IMG/VR virus record: IMGVR_UViG_2524614585_000001
Coordinates: 1 to 40,036 of that record
Direction: 5' to 3' (one strand)
Source: a virus
Length of the DNA stretch: 40,036 nucleotides
Shown: in pieces, positions 3,756 to 39,948 of the stretch
How positions within the stretch are numbered: position 1 is the stretch's first letter
Layout: each line of letters begins with the position of its first letter
Program-made: the position numbers and the translations under genes
The notes under the pieces: generated by a model
The model's database searches: none
What the model was told of the DNA's origin: nothing
The model's input: only the letters and a program-made list of their open reading frames with translations

Positions 3756-4005
3756 ACTTACGTGCTTTCTTGCGTTCCAATATTTCCTGCGCTTCTTCTG
3801 CTTCGGTCGTTAAGTTAGTGTTTCTATACGTTGAATACAGCGCTGATACGACTAACGCAACTGTGGACACAGCTTCATAAATCTGCTCGTCGCTGAACGG
3901 TAATGGATTGTACCCGAAGCTCACTAATGCTTGGTTAATCAGTAGTATGATTAGTACGATTAGGCGGGTAATACCCGCTGTTTTATTGTTCTTTGGATTC
4001 GCCAA
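3754..4005 (-). CDS. Holin (phi LC3-type, two TM segments)
   Basis: Two hydrophobic segments and a charged C-terminus; TTG at 4005 sits 6 nt after GGAGGTG. The ORF-track start at 4020 would swallow the RBS. Confidence 0.75.
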   Translation of the reverse strand: MANPKNNKTAGITRLIVLIILLINQALVSFGYNPLPFSDEQIYEAVSTVALVVSALYSTYRNTNLTTEAEEAQEILERKKARK

Positions 4006-28536: not shown

Positions 28537-29022
28537 CTAACACTTCACGGCGCGAACATCTTCCAATGTCCGTCCGGTTTGTTTTAGTTTATTCAGCAGT
28601 GGCTTTGGAATCGGCATCGGGAAATCTTTTTCCTGCATCCTCATGTATTTAATGCGGCCAATAATTTGAAGTAGTTCCTCGCCCTCGATTTCCGGCTTTG
28701 GTGCCGGTCCATATACATGACTGGATTTCCGAACCGGTGTATTGATCGCACGCTCTTTCGTCCATCCCTGCTTAAATCTGCCTTGTAGTGTTTTATTTGC
28801 GATGCCATTCTGTCTTGCAGTATTGATATCGTCCTCTGTTAGCTCTACACCGTAGATGGTGCGTTTCCGATTAACTCTGGAATACCGTTCATGCGGCTGC
28901 ATAGATATAGCTTCTTCTATCGGCCACCCTTTACTTAATCTGCTGCTTAACGTTTTAGTTTTAATGCCATTTTCTTCAGCAATTTGTTTTTGTCTTTCAG
29001 TCAAATCTCGTAAGCCTGTCAT
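28537..29022 (-). CDS. Tandem-HTH DNA-binding protein (161 aa)
   Basis: Repeated GI.(T/N)KTL..R..(K/Q)GW..E.AI; ATG 29022 sits 6 nt after GGAGGG. Confidence 0.45.
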   Translation of the reverse strand: MTGLRDLTERQKQIAEENGIKTKTLSSRLSKGWPIEEAISMQPHERYSRVNRKRTIYGVELTEDDINTARQNGIANKTLQGRFKQGWTKERAINTPVRKSSHVYGPAPKPEIEGEELLQIIGRIKYMRMQEKDFPMPIPKPLLNKLKQTGRTLEDVRAVKC

Positions 29023-29236
29023 TGTCATCCCTCCAAAGATGCGCCAATACTTCCGCTAATTTCCTCCTAACATGCGATTGTGGTGTCTTTAATAACATTT
29101 GAATGTATTTGTCCCCGAATAAGTTCAATGCGTTTATATCGTCTTTTACGATGGTTTCTCGATTCAATAATTTATCAGCGAGCGCCATTTCCGGAGGAAC
29201 GGCGACCTCGACTGGTTTTTTTAGAGTGTGCAGCAT
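28997..29236 (-). CDS. Hypothetical protein (79 aa)
   Basis: TAATG overlap with the upstream loader gene. Confidence 0.45.
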   Translation of the reverse strand: MLHTLKKPVEVAVPPEMALADKLLNRETIVKDDINALNLFGDKYIQMLLKTPQSHVRRKLAEVLAHLWRDDNDRLTRFD

Positions 29237-30009
29237 TATTTAACCCCTTTCATGCGGTAGTCGTCACCATCTATAACAATGGCTTTTGCTTTTTCCATCA
29301 TTCGAGAAAAGACTCGATACAATGCCTGTGATGATCTGAATTGTTCGCTCGTTAAATTTGTCGTATAGATAGTGCATTTATTCCGTCGTGCATCGACTAA
29401 TCGGAATAGTTCTGACACTTCCCACTCACTCATTCGATTTGCGCCGACATCATCTAAAATTAGTAAATCAGCTTCTTTTGCAAATTTGAAAATCGGATGG
29501 ACTTGGTTTAAGTCTTTAAAGCCTTGTTTCAACTTATCTACATAGTCCGGCAGCGATATGAATAACACTTGATAATCCTGCGCTCTTAACTGATTGCGGA
29601 CTGCAGCTGCGAGATGTGTTTTTCCTGTTCCAAAAGTACCCTGTACTAATAAGCAATTTGATTCAGATAACATCTCGTCAAAATGATTTGCATAGTAACG
29701 CATCTTTTTCGTTGCTTGCACTTGCTCATCGCTATTCGCCTGGTAATTATCGAATGTCTTTTCTTTGTAATCGCCATGCATAATACTCGCTTTCGCAAAA
29801 GCATCAGCTTTTATCTTTTTCTGTTGGTCGTTTACAAACTTGATGCGGTCACATATACATCCGGATTCATTCTCTTTCACTTCACCGTCTGCGAAAGTGA
29901 TCTGCACAATTTTCAAATCTTTACCGCAACCGTCACACTTCTCGCCGGTATATTCGACTTCGGAATGCTTGATTTTGTTCTCGTGCATCATCTTTTTGAT
30001 TTGTTCCAT
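29236..30009 (-). CDS. DnaC/IstB-like AAA+ helicase loader with N-terminal Cys cluster
   Basis: Walker A GTFGTGKTH, Walker B LLILDDVG. Confidence 0.85.
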   Translation of the reverse strand: MEQIKKMMHENKIKHSEVEYTGEKCDGCGKDLKIVQITFADGEVKENESGCICDRIKFVNDQQKKIKADAFAKASIMHGDYKEKTFDNYQANSDEQVQATKKMRYYANHFDEMLSESNCLLVQGTFGTGKTHLAAAVRNQLRAQDYQVLFISLPDYVDKLKQGFKDLNQVHPIFKFAKEADLLILDDVGANRMSEWEVSELFRLVDARRNKCTIYTTNLTSEQFRSSQALYRVFSRMMEKAKAIVIDGDDYRMKGVK

Positions 30010-30021
30010 ATCTGCCCTCCT

Positions 30022-30807
30022 CTAAAATCCTAGTTTTTCAGTTAAACTTTTTTCATAGTCAGTATTAAGATCGACTTCTTGGTGTCCGTTCTTGAAATTA
30101 CCCACTTGTTTCCTACCTTTTTCTTGTACAATCTGTTTGTTGGTTTCGATGGCATCTTCTGAATACCGCTCTTGATTAATGAATACTTCTGGACCACATA
30201 TAAATTGAATTTCGTCCTGTGTTTTTAGATAGATTTCAGTAGCTTTGAAGAATTGTTCTTCGCCGACTTCTTTAATAGCTTTATCGAATTTAGTTCTGAC
30301 TTTCTTCTTGCTGCCGGTTTTCTTCGGATACAACTTCCACCATTTTTCAAAGAGCGCGATATCTTTCTCTTGATGGTTATTCTTATTGATAGTGTTATTA
30401 ATGGAAGTGTTATTATTAGTGGTTATGTTTTCCGTCGTCGGTTTTTCCGTCGTCGGTTTTTCCGTCGTCGCAAAACGTAACGTCGGTATAAACTCGATAG
30501 TGTAGACGTTATGAGTGAATTGACTGCCCTGCTGCCGCTCTTGACTAACTGTGATATATCCCTTTTCTTCCAATAATCTTCGATGCTTATTAAACCGTTG
30601 CCGAGATATTCCTAAGAAGTCCGTTATATATTCAACAGTTGGATAAGCGGAGTTTCCATTACCTGAATAACTTGCAATGAAGGAATAAATCGCTTTAGCT
30701 TCGATACTCAAATCCTTATCTTTCATCACTTTCTTAGGTATGATGCCGTATCCCTCACTCATAACACCCTTTAATTCAATGCGATCTTGCTTCGACACTT
30801 TTATCAC
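30022..30807 (-). CDS. Replisome organizer / replication initiator (N-terminal winged HTH, TTEKP linker, DnaD-like C-terminus)
   Basis: Position upstream of the loader; FEKWWKLYPKK motif. Confidence 0.7.
   Translation of the reverse strand: MIKVSKQDRIELKGVMSEGYGIIPKKVMKDKDLSIEAKAIYSFIASYSGNGNSAYPTVEYITDFLGISRQRFNKHRRLLEEKGYITVSQERQQGSQFTHNVYTIEFIPTLRFATTEKPTTEKPTTENITTNNNTSINNTINKNNHQEKDIALFEKWWKLYPKKTGSKKKVRTKFDKAIKEVGEEQFFKATEIYLKTQDEIQFICGPEVFINQERYSEDAIETNKQIVQEKGRKQVGNFKNGHQEVDLNTDYEKSLTEKLGF
30427..30470. repeat. Three tandem 15-bp repeats GTTTTTCCGTCGTCG (first copy 14 bp), candidate iterons/origin
   Basis: Read directly; they encode the TTEKPTTEKPTTE linker and are flanked by AGTGTTATTA repeats. 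Confidence 0.85.
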
Positions 30808-31325
30808 CCCTTATATATTTTTCTAATTTCATCTCCGTAAGTTTTATCCGTTACAAACTCCATGATTTCGTTTACACACTTCTTAGGACTCTTATAGATT
30901 TCAGAACCCGTAAATCTCATAACGTAATATCCTTCATTCAATAAAAATCTATCTCGAGACTTATCTTTCTGCGCCTGCTCTTTGGTTTTTTCGTGGTAAT
31001 CATGCCCGTCGCACTCAATGACAAGTCTTACGCTCTTATCGTCATCTTCTAGGAATAACACTTCATATAAAAAATCTACTTTTATATAAGAGTCACCCTT
31101 ATCGATTTTGAATTGCGGAGTTAAAACTTCGTTGTACCTCTCGTCGAAATTTCCGTATACAATCGAACTCTTCAGTTGGATAAACAACAATTCTTCAATG
31201 GGTGAGTCAGTATTTTTTACGCTGCTCGGACTAACGTATTCTTTCCCGTCGATAATATGAGCACCCTCCACCATTTCTTTAAAAGACGTCAAAATTTCTT
31301 CCATCACTTCATCGTATCTACTCAT
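30804..31325 (-). CDS. PD-(D/E)XK restriction-endonuclease-fold protein (DUF559/Vsr-like)
   Basis: SPIEELLF...KVDFLY...LVIECDGHDYH...DKSRDRFLLNEGYYVMRF; ATGA overlap with the replisome organizer. Confidence 0.6.
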   Translation of the reverse strand: MSRYDEVMEEILTSFKEMVEGAHIIDGKEYVSPSSVKNTDSPIEELLFIQLKSSIVYGNFDERYNEVLTPQFKIDKGDSYIKVDFLYEVLFLEDDDKSVRLVIECDGHDYHEKTKEQAQKDKSRDRFLLNEGYYVMRFTGSEIYKSPKKCVNEIMEFVTDKTYGDEIRKIYKG

Positions 31326-31349
31326 TCTCATCACTCCATATATATTTTT

Positions 31350-31427
31350 GATATCATTATGATATCTTGTATTTATATTATATCAAAGTGATATCACCTT
31401 TACAACATTAAGTTATCTTGCTATTAT
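31350..31427. promoter_or_regulatory. Back-to-back divergent promoters with four GATATC(A) boxes
   Basis: Boxes at 31350, 31361, 31380 and 31390. Minus promoter: TTGTAA (31400..31405), 17 nt, TATAAT (31377..31382). Plus promoter: TTTACA (31399..31404), 17 nt, TATTAT (31422..31427). Confidence 0.55.
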
Positions 31428-31459
31428 TAAGTTAATAAAGAATTTATAGGAGGATTCTT

Positions 31460-31615
31460 ATGGCTGTGTCTGATGAAAAAACTAGAACGTTAATAACTAT
31501 CTTAAAAACTGATAAAGAAAAACTTGAAGATATCGCTGCAAAAGAAAATCGCAGTTTCAATCAACAGGTTAATCACATCTTGCAACAGTTCTTAAAAGAT
31601 CAGAGTGCCAATTAG
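31460..31615 (+). CDS. Ribbon-helix-helix (CopG/Arc/MetJ-type) DNA-binding protein, 51 aa
   Basis: RBS TAGGAGGA; MAVSDEKTRTLITILKTDKEKLEDIAAKENRSFNQQVNHILQQFLK has a beta-alpha-alpha pattern; not in the ORF track (below cutoff). Confidence 0.65.
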   Translation: MAVSDEKTRTLITILKTDKEKLEDIAAKENRSFNQQVNHILQQFLKDQSAN

Positions 31616-31630
31616 GCACTCTTTTTTATT
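31602..31630. terminator. Terminator shared by the convergent RHH gene and ssb
   Basis: AGAGTGCC-aatta-GGCACTCT plus TTTTTTATTT. Confidence 0.7.
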
Positions 31631-32103
31631 TAAAATGGAAGATCATCATCATTCACATCTACTGGTCCGCCATTTTCAAATGGATTCGGTTCAACCGGTC
31701 GATTTCCTCGCGCTTGCTGCGGCTGATCGTTTCCGTAAGCTGGTTTGTAGCTACTTTGATTATTGTTAGATTGCTGATTGCCACTCTTCGGCTCCAGGAA
31801 CTGAACGCTTTCACACACAACTTCAGTTACATAAACACGCTGTCCATCTTTGTTTTCATAGTTCCTAGTTTGAATACGTCCATCGATTCCACATAAGCTA
31901 CCTTTCTTTAGGTACTGGTTCACGTTCTCTGCTTGTTTACGGAAGGTTACGCAGTTAATAAAATCTGCACTCTGTTCGCCGTCTTTGCTTGTAAATGGTC
32001 GATTGACTGCTAAATTAAAACTTGTGACTGCAATATTAGATTGACTGACCCTTAATTCAGGGTCTTTAGTCAATCTGCCTACTAATACAACTCTATTGAG
32101 CAT
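31630..32103 (-). CDS. ssb: Single-stranded DNA-binding protein
   Basis: [20 protein letters not shown]-fold start and DDDLPF tail; start moved to ATG 32103. Confidence 0.9.
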
Positions 32104-32923
32104 CTGTTGCACCTTCTTCCATTTGTGGATAATCTGCGACAACTTCTGGCATATCAACATAGCTATCATCGTCAGGAGTAATATCCTTAATGCTTCTACC
32201 TACACCTTCGTCATGCGATACTGCTGTTTGCATTTCTACTGAGACCGGAAGGTATTTCCACATGTAACGGATCACTGTCTTCTTCGCCATTTCTTCATAA
32301 TCTGTTGCCCATGGAGAATACTTACTGTTGCCTGCTTTACTTCTTGCTCTGCGTTTTTCAATTTCTGACTTCGGCATATACTCAAATTGATAGCCACCGT
32401 CTTTAAAGTGAGCCACTGCATAAGCACCTTTGAATGCTCCTCTGTCATCTTCTGTCGGTACATGTTTCAAATCACTGTGCAAACCGAGCTGATAATCAAA
32501 TTCATCATTCTCATAGACTGCGTGCGCATAAATCGATTGGATATGTCCAGATCGTCTCGCTAAATCAATCATTCCTCGGTAGCCGATGATAAACGTAACG
32601 TCTGTCGTGCCCTTCTTATTGTTTCTGAATGGTAAGAAGTAGCAGTGACCCATTGGTCCTGGTTCAAGACCGAGTTGTGCAGATTGCATCACTGCACCAA
32701 GTAAGCTCGATACATCGGCTTCTTTTAGCTGTGGTGTCGTTCTAATAACCGTTGTCGCCATTCTTGTCATACGTTCAATGCTCATGTGCTGCGGAAGTGC
32801 CTGTGCCATTGCCGGTGCCATCTGGTCGATATAGTCCCCGATTGTTTTTGGTTTGTTACCTTGTGCGACTTCGTTTTGCTTTTGCGTTGCTACCTGCTGT
32901 TTTAAAGTTTCATTCGTTGCCAT
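32093..32923 (-). CDS. recT: RecT-family single-strand annealing recombinase
   Basis: LGLEPG...CYFLPF...[13 protein letters not shown] blocks; paired with the YqaJ exonuclease. Confidence 0.85.
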
Positions 32924-32925
32924 AA

Positions 32926-33873
32926 TTATTGTTCCTCCTTGATTTGTTTGATTCTTAATACTCTGTATTCCGATTCTTTATAGAACTGATCAATCACATC
33001 TTTGCCGTACTTTTTTTCCAGTGCTTTCTTATCTATGCTGCGGCGAGTCTGCTGTTTCCATGTCGCAATATATGCTTCTGTTTTGCCTGCTGCATTATGT
33101 CCAAGCGAATCTTTCAACTGATTCTCATATTTCTTTTGCAGTTGCTGTTTTTCTTTAATATCTTCTTTGATACTTTCTATAGCTTTCATCAACGTATCGG
33201 CTTCTGAACCCAACTCAATCTCTTCATTATCAATATCTTGATACATATGATTAATGAAGTCCGATGTGGCTTCACTTCCATCAATCTCTGGAATAACGTT
33301 TGCTTGAACATTGTTCTCCCAGAACTCTTTTTCAGCATCAATGATAATTTGAATCAGTTCATCGTCTCTTTCAATTTCTTTCCAGATAAATGATTGGCCA
33401 CCAATTAAAACAGCGATATATGCCTTCTCAAAGCCTGTGACAGCCATGTAATGTTGAATCTGACACAAATACTGTGCCGGCACGTTATCGTCTTCCCATT
33501 GCTCTGCGTTGTACTGTGAGGTAGTTTTACATTCGAGTAATGCTTTCTCACCGACGACAACACGGTCCAGGTTAGCCATCATAAAATGATGCTCAGGATG
33601 TCTTAGCATTCTGTTATCTCTACGCACTTTCTTACCGGTACGTGCTGCAAATTCTTCTGCCACCACGTCTTCTAAAACGTTCCCGAAATGAATTGCATCA
33701 TTGCTGATTTCTTGAATCATCTCCGGATTCGTTTTTTCAAAGAACAACTGTGTTTTAGACTTCCATTTGTTCACTCCAAGTATTGTCCCAGCGTCACTGC
33801 CGCCGATACCTGTCATGCGCTCCTGTAGCCATTCTTCACGTGTTAAATCTTTTATATTGACTAGCTCTGCCAT
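32926..33873 (-). CDS. YqaJ-type viral recombinase exonuclease
   Basis: GIGGSDAGTILGVNKWKS; PD-(D/E)XK core LECKT. Confidence 0.85.
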   Translation of the reverse strand: MAELVNIKDLTREEWLQERMTGIGGSDAGTILGVNKWKSKTQLFFEKTNPEMIQEISNDAIHFGNVLEDVVAEEFAARTGKKVRRDNRMLRHPEHHFMMANLDRVVVGEKALLECKTTSQYNAEQWEDDNVPAQYLCQIQHYMAVTGFEKAYIAVLIGGQSFIWKEIERDDELIQIIIDAEKEFWENNVQANVIPEIDGSEATSDFINHMYQDIDNEEIELGSEADTLMKAIESIKEDIKEKQQLQKKYENQLKDSLGHNAAGKTEAYIATWKQQTRRSIDKKALEKKYGKDVIDQFYKESEYRVLRIKQIKEEQ

Positions 33874-34959: not shown

Positions 34960-35463
34960 TTATATTCTCCTTTCCATTCGCAACTTCGCATCCCGATTCT
35001 GATTCAGCTGCTGCGGTTTAATCTGATAATCTTGCATCAGCCGATTTACGAATCCTGTGCCTTCGAACAGGACATCTTGTAACTCTGAAATCATGTGATG
35101 CAGTCCTTCTTTTTCATCTTGTGTCAGATGCTCTGGCTGTTTGTCTAATCGATTGCGGTGTAGCACTTCCATAAACTCATCGATTTCCTTTTGAATCCGG
35201 AATACATAGGACATGCGGTGTCCGTCATAGACACGATCTGATGGTGTTGGCAATGTGTGTCCGCCGGTCATTTCATAGGCTACGTCGTTTAATAAATTGG
35301 CATCTGATGCATTGGATAGTGCGGCGCTGCACATCGTTTGTGTCATTGGCTTCTGACCACTCTCTACACGGCTGATGTAGGATTTGTCTACGTGTAACTG
35401 ATTGGCTACTTGCTGCTGCGTTAAGTTGTTTCGTTGTCTGTATTTGGAAATTATTGTTGGCAT
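34960..35463 (-). CDS. XRE-family HTH protein with an approximately 100-aa C-terminal domain
   Basis: LTQQQVANQLHVDKSYISRVESG; ATG 35463 after AGGAGGA. Confidence 0.65.
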   Translation of the reverse strand: MPTIISKYRQRNNLTQQQVANQLHVDKSYISRVESGQKPMTQTMCSAALSNASDANLLNDVAYEMTGGHTLPTPSDRVYDGHRMSYVFRIQKEIDEFMEVLHRNRLDKQPEHLTQDEKEGLHHMISELQDVLFEGTGFVNRLMQDYQIKPQQLNQNRDAKLRMERRI

Positions 35464-35603
35464 CTGTTGTCCTCCTGACAATTTATATAGATTGATTGTT
35501 GATTCGGATAACTCGTATACTGTGTATAGAGTTAATTAAGTTAGTCGCATAACTGATAACTCATCTAGTGCTAACCAATTGGTCGTTGGTTAGTACTTCC
35601 TCA

Positions 35604-35929: not shown

Positions 35930-36697
35930 TTAAGAAACCTCCTGTTCAATCATTGGTAAGATATTGTTTTGCTTGAGTAATTCATACAGGAATAATCTTC
36001 CGTTCTGTGTCCACTTGGTATGCATTCTTACCGATGTACTACCATCTTTATGTTCAATCTCTGTCGTGTCCGAATGTGTTAAACCTTTACTGTGGTGTTT
36101 CGAGTAAAGTAACCATTGACCAGATTGTTTGTATTGAACTTTTAGATCGTGCAGTAACTTGTTGAGCGCCTGCGCTGACATTCCGTAATCTTTTGCGATT
36201 TGCCCGATTGTAACTAAGCTCTTGTTTTGTAAAATGTTGTCGTAGTAGCTTGCTTTAGGCTTCATTTCACTAATGCGTTGCCTGCTGATTTCAGTTTCGA
36301 GTCTTAATCTTTCGTTCTCTTCCTCTTTAGCTACTAATTCGAGTAACGCTTCTTTATAAGTAGTCGGAAGTTTGAGCGTTTGATTCTTGATGTGGTCTTC
36401 CATTTCGTTAAATTTGTTGATGTAATTCATTTTGAAATCGTTGTGCCCTTGAATATTGAACATGTAAAGTGTGAATCCATCTTTAGTAAGTAGGTACTCT
36501 GTTCTTAGCTCACCTTTTTTATCTCGGTATTCATTATCAATAATCAACGAACGAACATTATCGTCGGTTAAAATTCTTCTAATCTGGTTTATAACGTCGC
36601 CATGTCTCTTTCCGATTTGCTCCGCTACCACTCTGCTGCTTACGACAAGACCGAAATCTTCTTTGTTTTCAATTTGTATTTCTGCTAATTGATTCAT
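35930..36697 (-). CDS. Antirepressor (Rha-like N-terminus, KilAC/ANT C-terminus)
   Basis: VVSSRVVAEQIGKRHGDVINQIRR and SLVTIGQIAKDYGMSAQALNKLLHD. Confidence 0.7.
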   Translation of the reverse strand: MNQLAEIQIENKEDFGLVVSSRVVAEQIGKRHGDVINQIRRILTDDNVRSLIIDNEYRDKKGELRTEYLLTKDGFTLYMFNIQGHNDFKMNYINKFNEMEDHIKNQTLKLPTTYKEALLELVAKEEENERLRLETEISRQRISEMKPKASYYDNILQNKSLVTIGQIAKDYGMSAQALNKLLHDLKVQYKQSGQWLLYSKHHSKGLTHSDTTEIEHKDGSTSVRMHTKWTQNGRLFLYELLKQNNILPMIEQEVS

Positions 36698-37213: not shown

Positions 37214-37570
37214 ATGAATATGGATGTAAACCGATTAATCTCATTAAGGGAACGCAAAGGCTGGTCTAAGACTGAAGCAGCTAGACGTTTAAATATAGCT
37301 ACGAGCACTTACTCCGGCTATGAATACGGTCATCGTAAGCCTGATAATGATATGTTAGTAGAAATATCCGAGCTCTACGATGTGACTACTGATTACTTAT
37401 TAGGTAAAAGCGATGTTGCCAATGATCCATCCGACGACTTCGATGCTTTCATGTTTGAGGATAAAGAAGCGTTTGATGCCCTGCCTGATGATGTAAAACA
37501 GGAACTGATTAAAGAGATAAACGATAAGATTGAGTTTTTAGCATACAAGCAGAAGAATAAAGATAAGTAA
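37214..37570 (+). CDS. cI: CI-like / ImmR-like XRE repressor without an S24 autocleavage domain
   Basis: N-terminal HTH (WSKTEAARRLNIATSTYSGYE) plus an approximately 50-aa acidic helical tail; divergent from cro. Confidence 0.75.
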   Translation: MNMDVNRLISLRERKGWSKTEAARRLNIATSTYSGYEYGHRKPDNDMLVEISELYDVTTDYLLGKSDVANDPSDDFDAFMFEDKEAFDALPDDVKQELIKEINDKIEFLAYKQKNKDK

Positions 37571-37635
37571 TTGGGGCTATGCCCTATTATTTATAGATTG
37601 CAATTACATATATTACAATTAGAGGGGGATTTTGA

Positions 37636-38310
37636 ATGTCAGAAGAAGAACGTAAGCAACAGAAGAAACGGGGCGGTTGTCTCAAATGGGTATTAATCAT
37701 TTTCGGTGTACTCATTCTATTAGGCGCTTGTGGTGCGCTATTAGGTGGTGGGGATAACGCTACTAATACGACTCCAGAAGAAGCTACCAAAGAATCAGAA
37801 GAGCCTGCAGAAGAAGTGGAAACGGAAAGCGGCGAACAAGAAGAATCTGCAGAAGAAGATGAAGAGGTAGTTGAAGAGGATGAAGCTGTTGAAACAGTTG
37901 GCATCGGCGAAACATTAACTGTTGATGATATTGATTTTACTGTAAATGATATGTATCAACAAGATAGCGTAGGTGACGTTATAGCTTCAAATGCAAACGA
38001 TACTTATCTAATCTTAGATGTCTCCGTGACAAACAACCAAAATGAGGCAGTAACGCTCATGGATAGTTACTTCAAGATAGTCGATGGCGAAACAGTATTT
38101 GAACCAGACGGCACTGCATCAATGACAGCTAACCAAGCGATTAGCCCAGATAATTTAGGACTACTCGCAGAAGAAATAAATCCTGGATCTTCACGAGATG
38201 CATTAATTGTGTATGATATAACTCAAAGTGTCATAGACAGTCAAAGCAAGCAATTGCAAGTTCAGTCCGGAATGTTCGGTACTGAAACAGGAATCATAAA
38301 TCTACAATAA
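37636..38310 (+). CDS. DUF4352-like lipoprotein with an acidic linker
   Basis: Signal plus lipobox LLGAC, E-rich linker, beta-rich C-domain (TYLILDVSVTNNQNEAV). Confidence 0.7.
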   Translation: MSEEERKQQKKRGGCLKWVLIIFGVLILLGACGALLGGGDNATNTTPEEATKESEEPAEEVETESGEQEESAEEDEEVVEEDEAVETVGIGETLTVDDIDFTVNDMYQQDSVGDVIASNANDTYLILDVSVTNNQNEAVTLMDSYFKIVDGETVFEPDGTASMTANQAISPDNLGLLAEEINPGSSRDALIVYDITQSVIDSQSKQLQVQSGMFGTETGIINLQ

Positions 38311-38321
38311 GCAATACACCA

Positions 38322-38369
38322 GCTGACCACTGGAAGAATGAACATATTCAAGGTGGTCAGCACTTTTTT
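38322..38369 (+). terminator. Terminator after the lipoprotein gene
   Basis: GCTGACCAC-N22-GTGGTCAGC then ACTTTTTT. Confidence 0.6.
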
Positions 38370-38380
38370 AAACTTCAAAC

Positions 38381-38394
38381 CGAACATACGTTCT
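38381..38394 (+). promoter_or_regulatory. LexA (Cheo) box CGAACATACGTTCT
   Basis: Fits CGAAC-N4-GTTCG except the last base. The 12-nt core is identical to the box at 1071..1082 (reverse complement). Lies 20 nt before the ImmA-like ATG. Confidence 0.6.
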
Positions 38395-38413
38395 AAAATA
38401 AAGGGGTTTTCAC

Positions 38414-38863
38414 ATGAGAATTGAAGATAAAGTAAATGAAATCGTAGAATTATCAATATTAGATGTAATGGATTTATCAGTAGAACATCTCTCTTATATG
38501 TTCGATGTCCATATTTTATATAATCATCAATCTAACTTTTATGTTCAAAAAGCCGGTGTCGATATTATCGGTTTAAAATTTGATAAGCGACATGAGATGT
38601 TTAAAGCGTTCTGTCATGAAGCCGGTCATATGTTTTTACATGCGACCAATCAAAAGGCGATGCCGCAAACGTTTAACCAGCTGCAGGAAGCTGAAGCTGA
38701 GAAGTTCGCCCTACTCTTACAATTACCGGAGAATTTAATCATTAAGAATAAATGGTATGAACCAATCGATTTAATGAAGGAATTTAACGTATCTGAGGAG
38801 ATTGCGATTAAAAGATTACAGATGTTAAAGAGTCGCGCAGAAGTCTTGCAGCTGCAATTTTAG
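38414..38863 (+). CDS. ImmA/IrrE-family zinc metallopeptidase
   Basis: HEAGH (HEXXH) motif in a 149-aa protein within the repressor-integrase operon. Confidence 0.75.
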   Translation: MRIEDKVNEIVELSILDVMDLSVEHLSYMFDVHILYNHQSNFYVQKAGVDIIGLKFDKRHEMFKAFCHEAGHMFLHATNQKAMPQTFNQLQEAEAEKFALLLQLPENLIIKNKWYEPIDLMKEFNVSEEIAIKRLQMLKSRAEVLQLQF

Positions 38864-38874
38864 GAGGGAATACA

Positions 38875-39948
38875 ATGCCTGTATATGAAGCGAGTAATGG
38901 TACATGGTATGTGAAATTAAGTTATATCGATGAGTTCGGGGATAGAAAGTATAAGACAAAGCGGAATCTCCCGACACGGGGTAAAGCTAGAAAGTGGGAA
39001 GATGAGTTTTTCATCAAGCTGCAGGAAGGAGAATCGTCAGACTACCTATCATTTACAGTCCTGTCTGAACATTATATTGAGTGGTATTCCAAGCGGAGAA
39101 AACCATCCAGTATTAAGACGATAAAGAACTATGTCAATAATCATCTGGATCCGTACTTTAAGAAGATGAACGTCTACCGTATGAGTACGAAAGATATATT
39201 GAATTTTCACGACCACATGACAAATAAGATATTCAGAGATAAGCCGTTGAAGAAAGGTTATATCCAGGATGTACACACGGCGCTGAGCAGCATCTTAAAT
39301 CACGGGGTAAAATTCTATGATTTGAAGAAGAATGTTGCAGCACTGGCAGGGAATATCGAAAATGACGAGACACCGAGTTGGGATTACTGGACCTTGAATG
39401 AATTTGAATACTTCTATAATCAAGTTGACGACATTCTAATTAAGACATACTACCGCCTGCTCTTCTTTAGTGGACTGCGCCACGGAGAACTTCGCGCACT
39501 TACCTGGAATGATGTGAACCTAATTGATGGCTATGTCGATATTAACAAGACGAATTACAACGGCAAGGTGCATACACCAAAAACTAAAACATCTATCCGA
39601 AAAGTATATATCCCAAAACATGTGATTAATTTATTACATGAATATAAAATATGGTACCAAAGTGAAAAGGAATATAAAGATGATTATGTGGTGTTTGGTA
39701 ATTTCTATAAAGCATATGGGGAAAGTACAATACCGAAAAGGTACGATAAGATAATGGATGAAATAGATTTAAAAAGAATTAAGACACATGAGTTTCGACA
39801 TTCACATGCTTCTGATTGTATTAACCGGTTAAGGATGGATCGCGAAACTTTAGCAAAACGCTTAGGACATTCTTCATCAATTACAATCGAAAAAATATAT
39901 GGTCACTTGTATCCGAGCACAGAAAAAGATGCCATTTTAGACCTTTAA
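38875..39948 (+). CDS. int: Tyrosine integrase
   Basis: LRHGELRAL, HEFRHSHAS, LGHSS...YGHLY catalytic blocks. Confidence 0.9.
   Translation: MPVYEASNGTWYVKLSYIDEFGDRKYKTKRNLPTRGKARKWEDEFFIKLQEGESSDYLSFTVLSEHYIEWYSKRRKPSSIKTIKNYVNNHLDPYFKKMNVYRMSTKDILNFHDHMTNKIFRDKPLKKGYIQDVHTALSSILNHGVKFYDLKKNVAALAGNIENDETPSWDYWTLNEFEYFYNQVDDILIKTYYRLLFFSGLRHGELRALTWNDVNLIDGYVDINKTNYNGKVHTPKTKTSIRKVYIPKHVINLLHEYKIWYQSEKEYKDDYVVFGNFYKAYGESTIPKRYDKIMDEIDLKRIKTHEFRHSHASDCINRLRMDRETLAKRLGHSSSITIEKIYGHLYPSTEKDAILDL

Follow-up and report, generated by a model that had tools for sequence, protein, structure and literature searches.

Small ribbon-helix-helix (RHH) repressors such as CopG and the Arc and Mnt proteins of phage P22 bind tandem sub-sites about one helical turn apart, where dimers of dimers occlude the promoter; the role of CopG is to set the copy number of its plasmid, that of Arc and Mnt to regulate the antirepressor of P22. 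The present analysis concerns a gene for a small protein probably of this kind, here called arc, and the divergent DUF559/Vsr-like nuclease gene beside it, in a viral sequence of 40,036 nucleotides (IMG/VR record IMGVR_UViG_2524614585_000001, positions 1 to 40,036; this whole stretch is referred to as the window). The closest described system is that of IS605, for which a preprint (bioRxiv 10.64898/2026.09.24.754181, Moon, Zedaveinyte, Wiegand and Sternberg, September 2026) reports that Arc proteins bind a bidirectional promoter in chromatin immunoprecipitation sequencing (ChIP-seq) and repress the tnpB promoter in reporters, that mutants of the beta-strand or of the operator motif lose repression, and that members of the same clade lie beside homing endonuclease genes (HEGs); two dimers per operator are proposed there. 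Free-standing homing endonucleases of the HNH, GIY-YIG and T5orf172 families have been described at phage module boundaries (Barth, Dunham and Seed 2023, PMC10055350). In the window, arc is part of a portable cassette, and we consider it likely that this cassette represses the promoter leading into the nuclease gene (P_left) and with it the nuclease and replication genes.

The likeness to IS605 consists in an RHH microprotein of about 50 amino acids (aa) encoded divergently from a nuclease gene, and in a bidirectional promoter whose -35 and -10 elements are overlaid by repeated motifs. TnpB-linked members of the family, those of alignment A1, are homologues of the window protein. The window differs in its partner, which is DUF559/Vsr-like and not TnpB, with no TnpA or transposon ends; in having four boxes in two inverted pairs, one of them in the transcribed leader; in a predicted transcript that continues into phage replication genes; and in a cassette that brings a two-way terminator of its own and lies in antisense orientation within an operon of the phage. 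In its Arc part, the locus represents a variant of a kind that was first described only very recently.

By its sequence, the 51-aa product of arc is probably an RHH protein of the Arc family. It matched PHROG 582 ('Arc-like repressor') with E = 4e-7, residues 7-48 were aligned by hhalign with the whole domain of CopG (CopG/RepA of pMV158; probability 91%, E = 1e-6), and a family-profile search of the PDB returned the RHH proteins AvtR, SvtR, CopG and Mnt, so that these sequence profiles place the open reading frame (ORF) where the first-pass annotation had put it from its residue pattern. Similarity to P22 Arc was weak (probability 34%), with an 'ENRS' turn resembling the 'ENGRS' of Arc, and the biological setting of CopG and of Arc/Mnt differs from that of the window protein. 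A hidden Markov model built from TnpB- and HEG-linked homologues gave the window Arc 90.5 bits, its identity to the TnpB-linked members being 38-65% (alignment A1); homologues in the protein database are 48-51 aa long and 65-92% identical to it. The previously unannotated ORF, its ribosome binding site (RBS; AGGAGG at 31448-31453, 6 nt 5' of the arc ATG) and its terminator were all recovered, by translation, RBS position and hairpin scan respectively.

The two promoters reported to lie back to back were likewise found by the promoter scan; each agrees with the consensus at 10 of 12 positions, and within 31399-31405 the -35 hexamer of one overlaps that of the other. The position of the arc promoter (P_right) is kept at homologous loci, and the TGATATAAT extended -10 with the common -35 of P_left recurs in L003, L004, L012, L016, L204 and others (L-numbers, such as L003 or L126, are labels of comparison loci or contigs). 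Of the four GATATC boxes originally described, the cluster itself stands and three are exact (31350, 31361 and 31390), while the fourth reads TATATC (31380); both pairs exist, and the spacing given as 10-11 bp measures 11 bp in each, the box-to-box distances between 8-mers being 11, 18 and 11 bp. As described, the boxes cover the spacer of P_left (box 4), its -10 (box 3) and the early transcribed region (boxes 2 and 1). Boxes 3-4 recur in inverted orientation, with 88% identity, as boxes 1-2. When a 40-kb sequence was simulated 300 times under a first-order Markov model, four boxes in 48 bp never arose, and the paired pattern has no second occurrence within the window. The pair TATATCAnAGTGnTATCAC (boxes 3-4) is conserved 5' of homologous arc genes, and when IMG/VR was searched with nothing but this pair, 31 loci were found; in at least 17 a homologous ORF of 47-54 aa follows about 65 bp downstream. 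A weaker candidate fifth box, AGTTATCT, lies in the spacer of P_right and is possibly a site of Arc autoregulation; box-like sequences (GTTATA, GATATA or GATAAC) occupy the same place in other loci.

The boundaries of the unit formed by boxes, promoters, arc and terminator were evident from comparison with L126-L128, to which 31346-31628 is 83% identical in nucleotides; in both flanks identity drops to 35-42%. The Arc proteins are about 92-94% identical, the terminator-like hairpin is kept, and the gene that diverges from arc in these contigs is an HNH fragment (HLDHILPRKLGG). All four boxes are present in L126-L128, boxes 2 and 4 unchanged and boxes 1 and 3 with one base different each; in L125, the nuclease of which is 97% identical to that of the window, the four boxes are as in the window, and the leader substitutions in both sets fall mostly between the boxes. 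With the cassette removed, the spacer from ssb to the nuclease gene would be about 21 bp, against 12-21 bp in L120, L005, L121 and L131. No target-site duplication or terminal repeats were seen by eye at the cassette ends, and the exact 30-nt core of the cassette was not found in metagenomes of the Joint Genome Institute (JGI) or in IMG/VR. By these comparisons, 31346-31628 is a discrete, self-contained portable cassette.

A tblastn screen of IMG/VR gave 188 Arc relatives, of which 80 were retrieved and 78 non-identical loci compared. Boxes around a common -35 and a TGATATAAT-type -10 were present in all 78. The divergent partner of arc was TnpB in 15 loci, an HNH type in 8, GIY-YIG with NUMOD in 4, a DNA methylase with a TnpB N-terminal remnant in 2 and a ParM-like protein in 1; the product was phrog_19106, function unknown, in 39, and a few singletons made up the others. 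Among homologues in other settings, one lies between the portal and protease genes of Staphylococcus phage S-CoN_Ph26, that of L004 lies in the tail region and that of L003 adjoins HNH genes; all three share TTATATCAtAGTG(A/T)TATCAC 5' of the gene followed by the common -35, with TGATATAAT on the opposite strand. In our explanation, members of the cassette family would come to lie again and again beside the selfish nuclease genes of phages (TnpB, HNH, GIY-YIG).

Across these loci the box sequence co-varies, as judged from the alignments, with one predicted beta-strand residue of Arc. Proteins with GATATC or GTTATC boxes have a hydrophobic residue 11 in 21 of 22 distinct N-termini, those with GATACC boxes an Asn in 12/12. 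Residue 11 is aligned by hhalign with T6 of CopG, which we take to be, along with R4 and T8, a base-contacting residue. Synteny of the RHH and DUF559 genes, for which the first-pass annotation had proposed a search, recurs independently in L204 (uncultured Clostridia genome, 2528-4291), a second Arc-DUF559-organizer arrangement in which Arc has Asn at residue 11, the boxes are GATACC-type (GGTATC/GGTGTC) and the outward promoter has the TGATATAAT extended -10. Since L204 repeats the arrangement independently, the Arc-DUF559 pairing arose at least twice.

From the conserved boxes and promoters, the covariation and the precedent of the preprint we infer, with good support, that Arc represses the minus-strand promoter into the nuclease gene, the box cluster being its operator, as had been supposed. 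In the mechanism that we propose, the 51-aa repressor would be expressed from P_right and its dimers would bind TGATATCA-type boxes as two pairs, each with a spacing of 11 bp. One pair would cover the spacer and extended -10 of P_left and the other +4 to +22 of its transcript, and binding would shut P_left by blocking RNA polymerase. The box that adjoins P_right and the candidate one in its spacer probably serve autoregulation, damping Arc synthesis. From P_left, a transcript would run through the nuclease gene, the replisome organizer gene and the helicase loader gene, the frames of which overlap or adjoin; the predicted two-way terminator would limit read-through from the recT-ssb transcript and to a large extent separate these genes from it, so that they would be at least partly gated by Arc. 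In a lysogen, we speculate, the near-consensus internal promoter may stay silent, and upon induction antisense early transcription through arc may relieve the repression. The nuclease gene would behave as a free-standing, homing-endonuclease-like gene, and it is probable that both it and the cassette are accessory insertions, nested in an SSB|organizer spacer that measures 16 bp elsewhere.

If so, the Arc microprotein switch shown only weeks ago for IS605 is now seen as a discrete portable unit, which a phage would have coupled to a further nuclease superfamily (Vsr/DUF559) and which may control an entire replication module. The locus, with no more than one repressor, two promoters and four boxes, is a small natural system for experiments, and residue 11 against base 5 of the box offers a testable recognition rule.

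The product of the partner gene passes the Pfam cut-off of 20.6 bits for DUF559 (PF04480) with 40.4 bits and that of 38.2 bits for MTES_1575 with 40.7. By homology the start of the gene is likely ATG 31325 (MSRYDEV) and not GTG 31334, with GGAG at 31337-31334 as RBS. Its TGA overlaps the organizer GTG (GTGA at 30807-30804), as had been noted; this overlap of stop and start holds only if that GTG is the true start, the alternative being the internal ATG 30762. For an AlphaFold model (predicted local distance difference test score, pLDDT, 91), the top Foldseek matches in probability and target-normalised template modelling (TM) score were 3hrl, a DUF559 protein (probability 1.00, target-normalised TM score 0.78), and 3r3p, the catalytic domain of I-Bth0305I (probability 0.98, target-normalised TM score 0.68), at weak E-values of 0.04-0.08; in the profile search 3hrl was matched at E = 7e-7 and 3r3p marginally at E = 0.53. 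E44, D84, D106 and H111 are invariant in alignments of 28 and 42 sequences (26-60% identity), and D121 is nearly invariant in the former. In the 3r3p/3hrl alignments, read with PMC3239194, these five residues correspond to E170, D196, N208, H213 and D222 of I-Bth0305I, and the positions equivalent to E25, D51, H64, H69 and D97 of Vsr are all present. Because all five active-site positions are kept, the DUF559/Vsr-like protein is likely an active enzyme; the nuclease fold proposed at first sight is upheld by the Pfam matches, the Vsr-like fold of the model and the intact E-D-D-H-D residues. Searches of the nuclease against PADLOC, NCBIfam and PHROGs gave nothing useful, with one marginal PADLOC match (E = 0.0045), and the best relative in JGI metagenomes was 47% identical.

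The window nuclease shares the catalytic fold of I-Bth0305I and the 'EDxHD' Vsr-like homing endonucleases (PMC3239194), both groups occur in phages, and free-standing members of the latter are known; the window subfamily seems to be present or absent at a fixed intergenic site, to judge from loci with organizers only 62-75% identical. The window nuclease differs in having no NUMOD or helix-turn-helix (HTH) region (no Pfam domain was found in residues 1-90, and in the model the N-terminal 40 residues form a helix and a beta-hairpin) and no intron or intein, and is closer to plain DUF559 (3hrl). As in the system of PMC10055350, the gene lies beside an essential gene, here where a conserved SSB meets non-homologous organizers, and the slot is held by an HNH gene in Staphylococcus phage tp310-3; that work mentions neither a dedicated repressor cassette nor initiators linked with such genes across phyla. 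The window nuclease is a candidate for homing activity.

The position of the gene is strict. SSB, DUF559 and organizer follow in this order in L005, L120, L121 and L131, the order in Geobacillus phage NIIg9.7 is XRE, DUF559, DnaD, and DUF559 precedes DnaB_2 and an IstB-like loader in L130 and a 259-aa protein and a helicase in Stenotrophomonas phage SOVA965; in L131, as in the window, it follows the YqaJ-RecT-SSB recombination genes. The SSBs are 59-75% identical, and the window organizer is not homologous to the organizers of L005 or L120. Among 160 further loci (L133-L292, from GTDB genomes and IMG/VR), 137 have a downstream gene on the same strand at a median gap of 0 bp, with Pfam counts of 14 for DUF1376, 12 for DnaB_2, 10 for HTH_36, 7 for Phage_rep_O and 4 for Phage_rep_org_N. 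Counted per family and not per protein, 21 of the top 25 downstream PHROGs are replication initiation, DnaD-like, primosomal or O-like proteins, and at least 37 of the 137 match a single initiator PHROG. The upstream neighbours are mutually unrelated and scatter over 68 families, none of which occurs in more than 5 of 140 loci. This ECDGH-type DUF559 subfamily precedes non-homologous initiators in prophages of Bacillota, Proteobacteria and other phyla. ECDGH-type DUF559 genes also lie directly 5' of initiator genes in L001, L005, L120-L122, L130, L131 and L293. Our literature search found no paper linking DUF559 to phage replication or describing a nuclease-before-initiator synteny, which as far as that search shows is undescribed.

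The gene is facultative, because empty SSB|organizer junctions exist. No DUF559 lies within 2.5 kb of 80 relatives of the L005 organizer (41-75% identical), and in the closest of them (L294, L295, L297, L328) SSB and organizer are separated by 16 bp, the junction that is occupied in L005 and L121; organizer identity in this comparison of empty and occupied junctions is only 62-75%, with no near-identical pair of genomes and no intron or intein. In Staphylococcus phage tp310-3 (L123, 2568-2975) an HNH gene fills the slot 5' of the replication initiation gene and overlaps it, and in Listeria phage LP041 (L124) the slot holds nothing. Near-identical DNA to the window was not found in the phage collection, and close relatives of its organizer were not found in IMG/VR or GTDB genomes; the comparison of presence and absence covers relatives of the L005 organizer. 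A relative of the DUF559 protein is carried by only three isolated phages in INPHARED.

Several findings weigh against repression of a selfish nuclease by a portable cassette. All Pfam RHH matches to the 51-aa protein fall under the gathering scores, and the AlphaFold monomer is a single long helix and not beta-alpha-alpha; it gives no structural support and was left unused, and we read it as a probable artefact of a 10-sequence alignment and an absent dimer partner. Promoter-like matches in the region are not enriched (8 against 5.8 expected), and support for the promoters comes from their conservation at homologous loci and not from scan counts. The largest partner cluster (39 loci) gained no support as a nuclease from Pfam, PHROGs or the PDB. 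The covariation of box and residue may reflect few independent events, as the N-type proteins could be one clade. The DUF559 homologues of L005, L120, L121 and L131 adjoin ssb without any repressor; the nuclease accordingly has no need of Arc, and the cassette might be a passenger, whether neutral or selfish. Finally, the strict place before initiators fits a role in replication at least as well as a selfish one.

The last point leads to the alternative that survives best, in which DUF559 is a dedicated accessory of replication initiation, for example nicking or cutting in or close to the origin for recombination-dependent or rolling-circle replication, and Arc times the replication module; we regard this as possible but somewhat unlikely. 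It would account for the initiators of non-homologous families downstream and the scattered families upstream, for a position kept although the window organizer is unrelated to those of L005 and L120, for the strong conservation of the catalytic residues and for the place directly after YqaJ-RecT-SSB in the window and L131. What speaks against this role is that the initiators of the 80 L005-organizer relatives work without the nuclease gene, that an HNH gene or nothing can take its slot, that so few isolated phages carry a relative of it, and that the literature search found no such link.

That Arc is a second immunity layer was one of two readings offered by the first-pass annotation. Arc would be made constitutively from P_right in the lysogen, would silence the replication genes independently of the main repressor and would be relieved by antisense early transcription upon induction; we hold this to be unlikely, and it would hinge on the degree to which the bidirectional terminator stops transcripts coming from the ssb operon. 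The arc gene does lie on the strand of the lysogeny module (HTH_3 repressor, ImmA-like peptidase, integrase), P_right by its sequence needs no phage factor, the two-way terminator stands between ssb on one side and the genes for nuclease and replication on the other, and the near-consensus P_left would otherwise fire in the prophage. Like cassettes, however, occur in regions of structural genes or beside TnpB and HNH genes, where there is no replication to control, and on the minus strand the terminator has a weak tail (GATCTTTTAA), for which reason read-through may prevail.

Quite improbable, in our estimate, is that the cassette is a passenger of which the outward P_left merely prevents polarity of the inserted antisense arc and terminator, with regulation of the nuclease incidental. 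The sharp boundaries in different contexts would agree with it, as would the 56 of 78 loci in which arc is antisense within an operon, with a convergent gene ending no more than 200 bp downstream, and the DUF559 homologues that stand elsewhere without a repressor. Against it, about 72% of the loci outside the large phrog_19106 cluster have a nuclease as partner, far above random insertion, the pairing with DUF559 arose twice, and the boxes are placed to block P_left specifically. The toxin-antitoxin-like pair that had also been suggested, in which an RHH antitoxin neutralises the nuclease by direct binding, is very hard to maintain: many type II antitoxins have RHH domains, and the best Pfam match is the FitA-like antitoxin RHH (E = 0.022) and a PDB profile match the EndoAI antitoxin (E = 0.006), but arc and the nuclease gene are divergent and not co-transcribed, 51 aa make up the RHH core alone with no C-terminal toxin-binding extension, near-identical RHH genes accompany unrelated nucleases (DUF559 here, HNH in L126-128, with TnpB and GIY-YIG elsewhere in the family), DUF559 homologues occur alone, and PADLOC gave no match for the RHH protein and only the marginal one for the nuclease.

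Beyond the preferred reading of a portable Arc cassette over the nuclease and replication genes, a wider generalisation is doubtful at present. In it, the ECDGH(D/E)(F/Y)HEKTKEQ branch of DUF559 would be phylum-spanning free-standing nucleases at the 5' flank of initiators, driving exchange of initiator/origin modules or supplying the break for recombination-dependent replication, and Arc cassettes would be interchangeable 283-bp 'safety switches' passing from one selfish nuclease to another, with four or more unrelated folds among them, and obeying a one-residue/one-base code in which Leu/Ile at residue 11 goes with GATATC and Asn with GATACC. Explaining the conserved nuclease before initiators could reveal module exchange, or break formation for late replication, in temperate phages.

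The window as a whole is that of a temperate Firmicutes-type phage or prophage, the minus strand of which carries almost all genes. The coordinates of the features are collected in Table 1. The ORF called mechanically for ssb begins at 32169, which gives it a 77-nt overlap with recT; homologues start with MLNRVVL, and the true start is probably ATG 32103. An Rfam scan of 29000-33000 gave a chance-level match on the terminator and nothing else.

Table 1 Features of the window, with positions, strand and remarks
Feature	Positions	Strand	Remarks
IstB/DnaC-like helicase loader	29236-30009	minus	Pfam IstB_IS21 E = 3.5e-16
Replisome organizer, DnaD-like, HTH_36	30022-30807	minus	Pfam HTH_36; PHROG 270 'replication initiation protein' E = 9e-39
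DUF559/Vsr-like nuclease gene, 173 aa	30804-31325	minus	Pfam DUF559 and MTES_1575
Arc cassette (boxes, bidirectional promoter, arc, terminator)	31346-31628		283 bases; sharp boundaries
Box 1, TGATATCA	31349-31356		about +15 to +22 of P_left transcript
Box 2, TGATATCT	31360-31367		about +4 to +11 of P_left transcript; conserved in L125-L128
P_left, predicted, TTGTAA-17-TGaTATAAT	31377-31405	minus	reads into nuclease gene; -35 31405-31400; -10 31382-31377; 10/12 consensus plus TG
Box 3, TTATATCA	31378-31385		coincides with extended -10 (TGATATAA) of P_left
Box 4, TGATATCA	31389-31396		in P_left spacer, abuts P_right -35; invariant in L125-L128
P_right, predicted, TTTACA-17-TGcTATTAT	31399-31427	plus	arc promoter; -35 31399-31404; -10 ends 31427; 10/12 consensus plus TG
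Candidate fifth box, AGTTATCT, weaker	31411-31418		P_right spacer; 22 bp from box 4; identical in L126-128
arc, 51-aa ORF	31460-31615	plus	between ssb and nuclease gene
Bidirectional intrinsic-terminator-like hairpin	31602-31622	scores on both	between arc and ssb; 8-bp stem, 5 GC pairs, T-rich tails
ssb	31630-32103	minus	Pfam SSB E = 4.5e-36; convergent with arc; upstream neighbour
RecT	32923-32093	minus	early region
YqaJ exonuclease	33873-32926	minus	early region
Second HTH_3 protein	34960-35481
Rha/KilAC (Rha/ANT) antirepressor	35930-36697	lytic strand
HTH_3 repressor of lysogeny module	37214-37570	plus
Lysogeny block (HTH_3 repressor, DUF4352 protein, ImmA/IrrE-like M78 peptidase, tyrosine integrase)	37214-39948	plus

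Further observations were made at single Arc loci. In L069-L119 (phage contigs of about 75 kb, from sample 3300045988 and others) four to six TGATACCA boxes with a spacing of about 11 bp lie 5' of an Asn-type Arc, and the divergent partner is the 200-aa phrog_19106 protein, in which a 'SGIY...YVG' stretch can be seen by eye and no profile confirms it; a GIY-YIG identity for the 39-locus cluster, considered on the strength of this stretch ('SGIYAF..YVGQA'), was rejected for want of support from Pfam, PHROGs and the PDB. L013 and L018 (from the same contigs as L052 and L054) differ from L012 and L023 in that arc lies at the opposite end of the box and promoter unit, where it is transcribed from the promoter that is outward elsewhere. 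In L012, arc and tnpB have an identical RBS/start context (ggtggtgatagtATG) as an inverted repeat, which could allow inversion or recombination. The partner in L053 and L058 is an N6/N4 DNA methylase, the ORF of which begins with MLRAYKE, the typical N-terminus of TnpB; by its sequence the ORF seems to retain a remnant of TnpB, to which a methylase was fused or which it replaced. The Arc homologue of L048 diverges from a ParM-like actin (ALP_N), which recalls the RHH protein ParR of plasmid partition systems.

In Clostridium phage c-st (NC_007581, 102734-102880; L132, 2501-2647) an unannotated Arc homologue, 47% identical to that of the window and with a like layout of boxes and -35, diverges from the transposase CST113; its boxes read GATAAC/GTTAAC and Gln stands at residue 11, perhaps as a third pairing of protein and box. 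Between boxes and RBS, at about 3880-3925, the HNH leader of L003 and L004 contains an inverted repeat of 7 bp without mismatch (GCACTAG ... CTAGTGC), which may form an extra regulatory hairpin.

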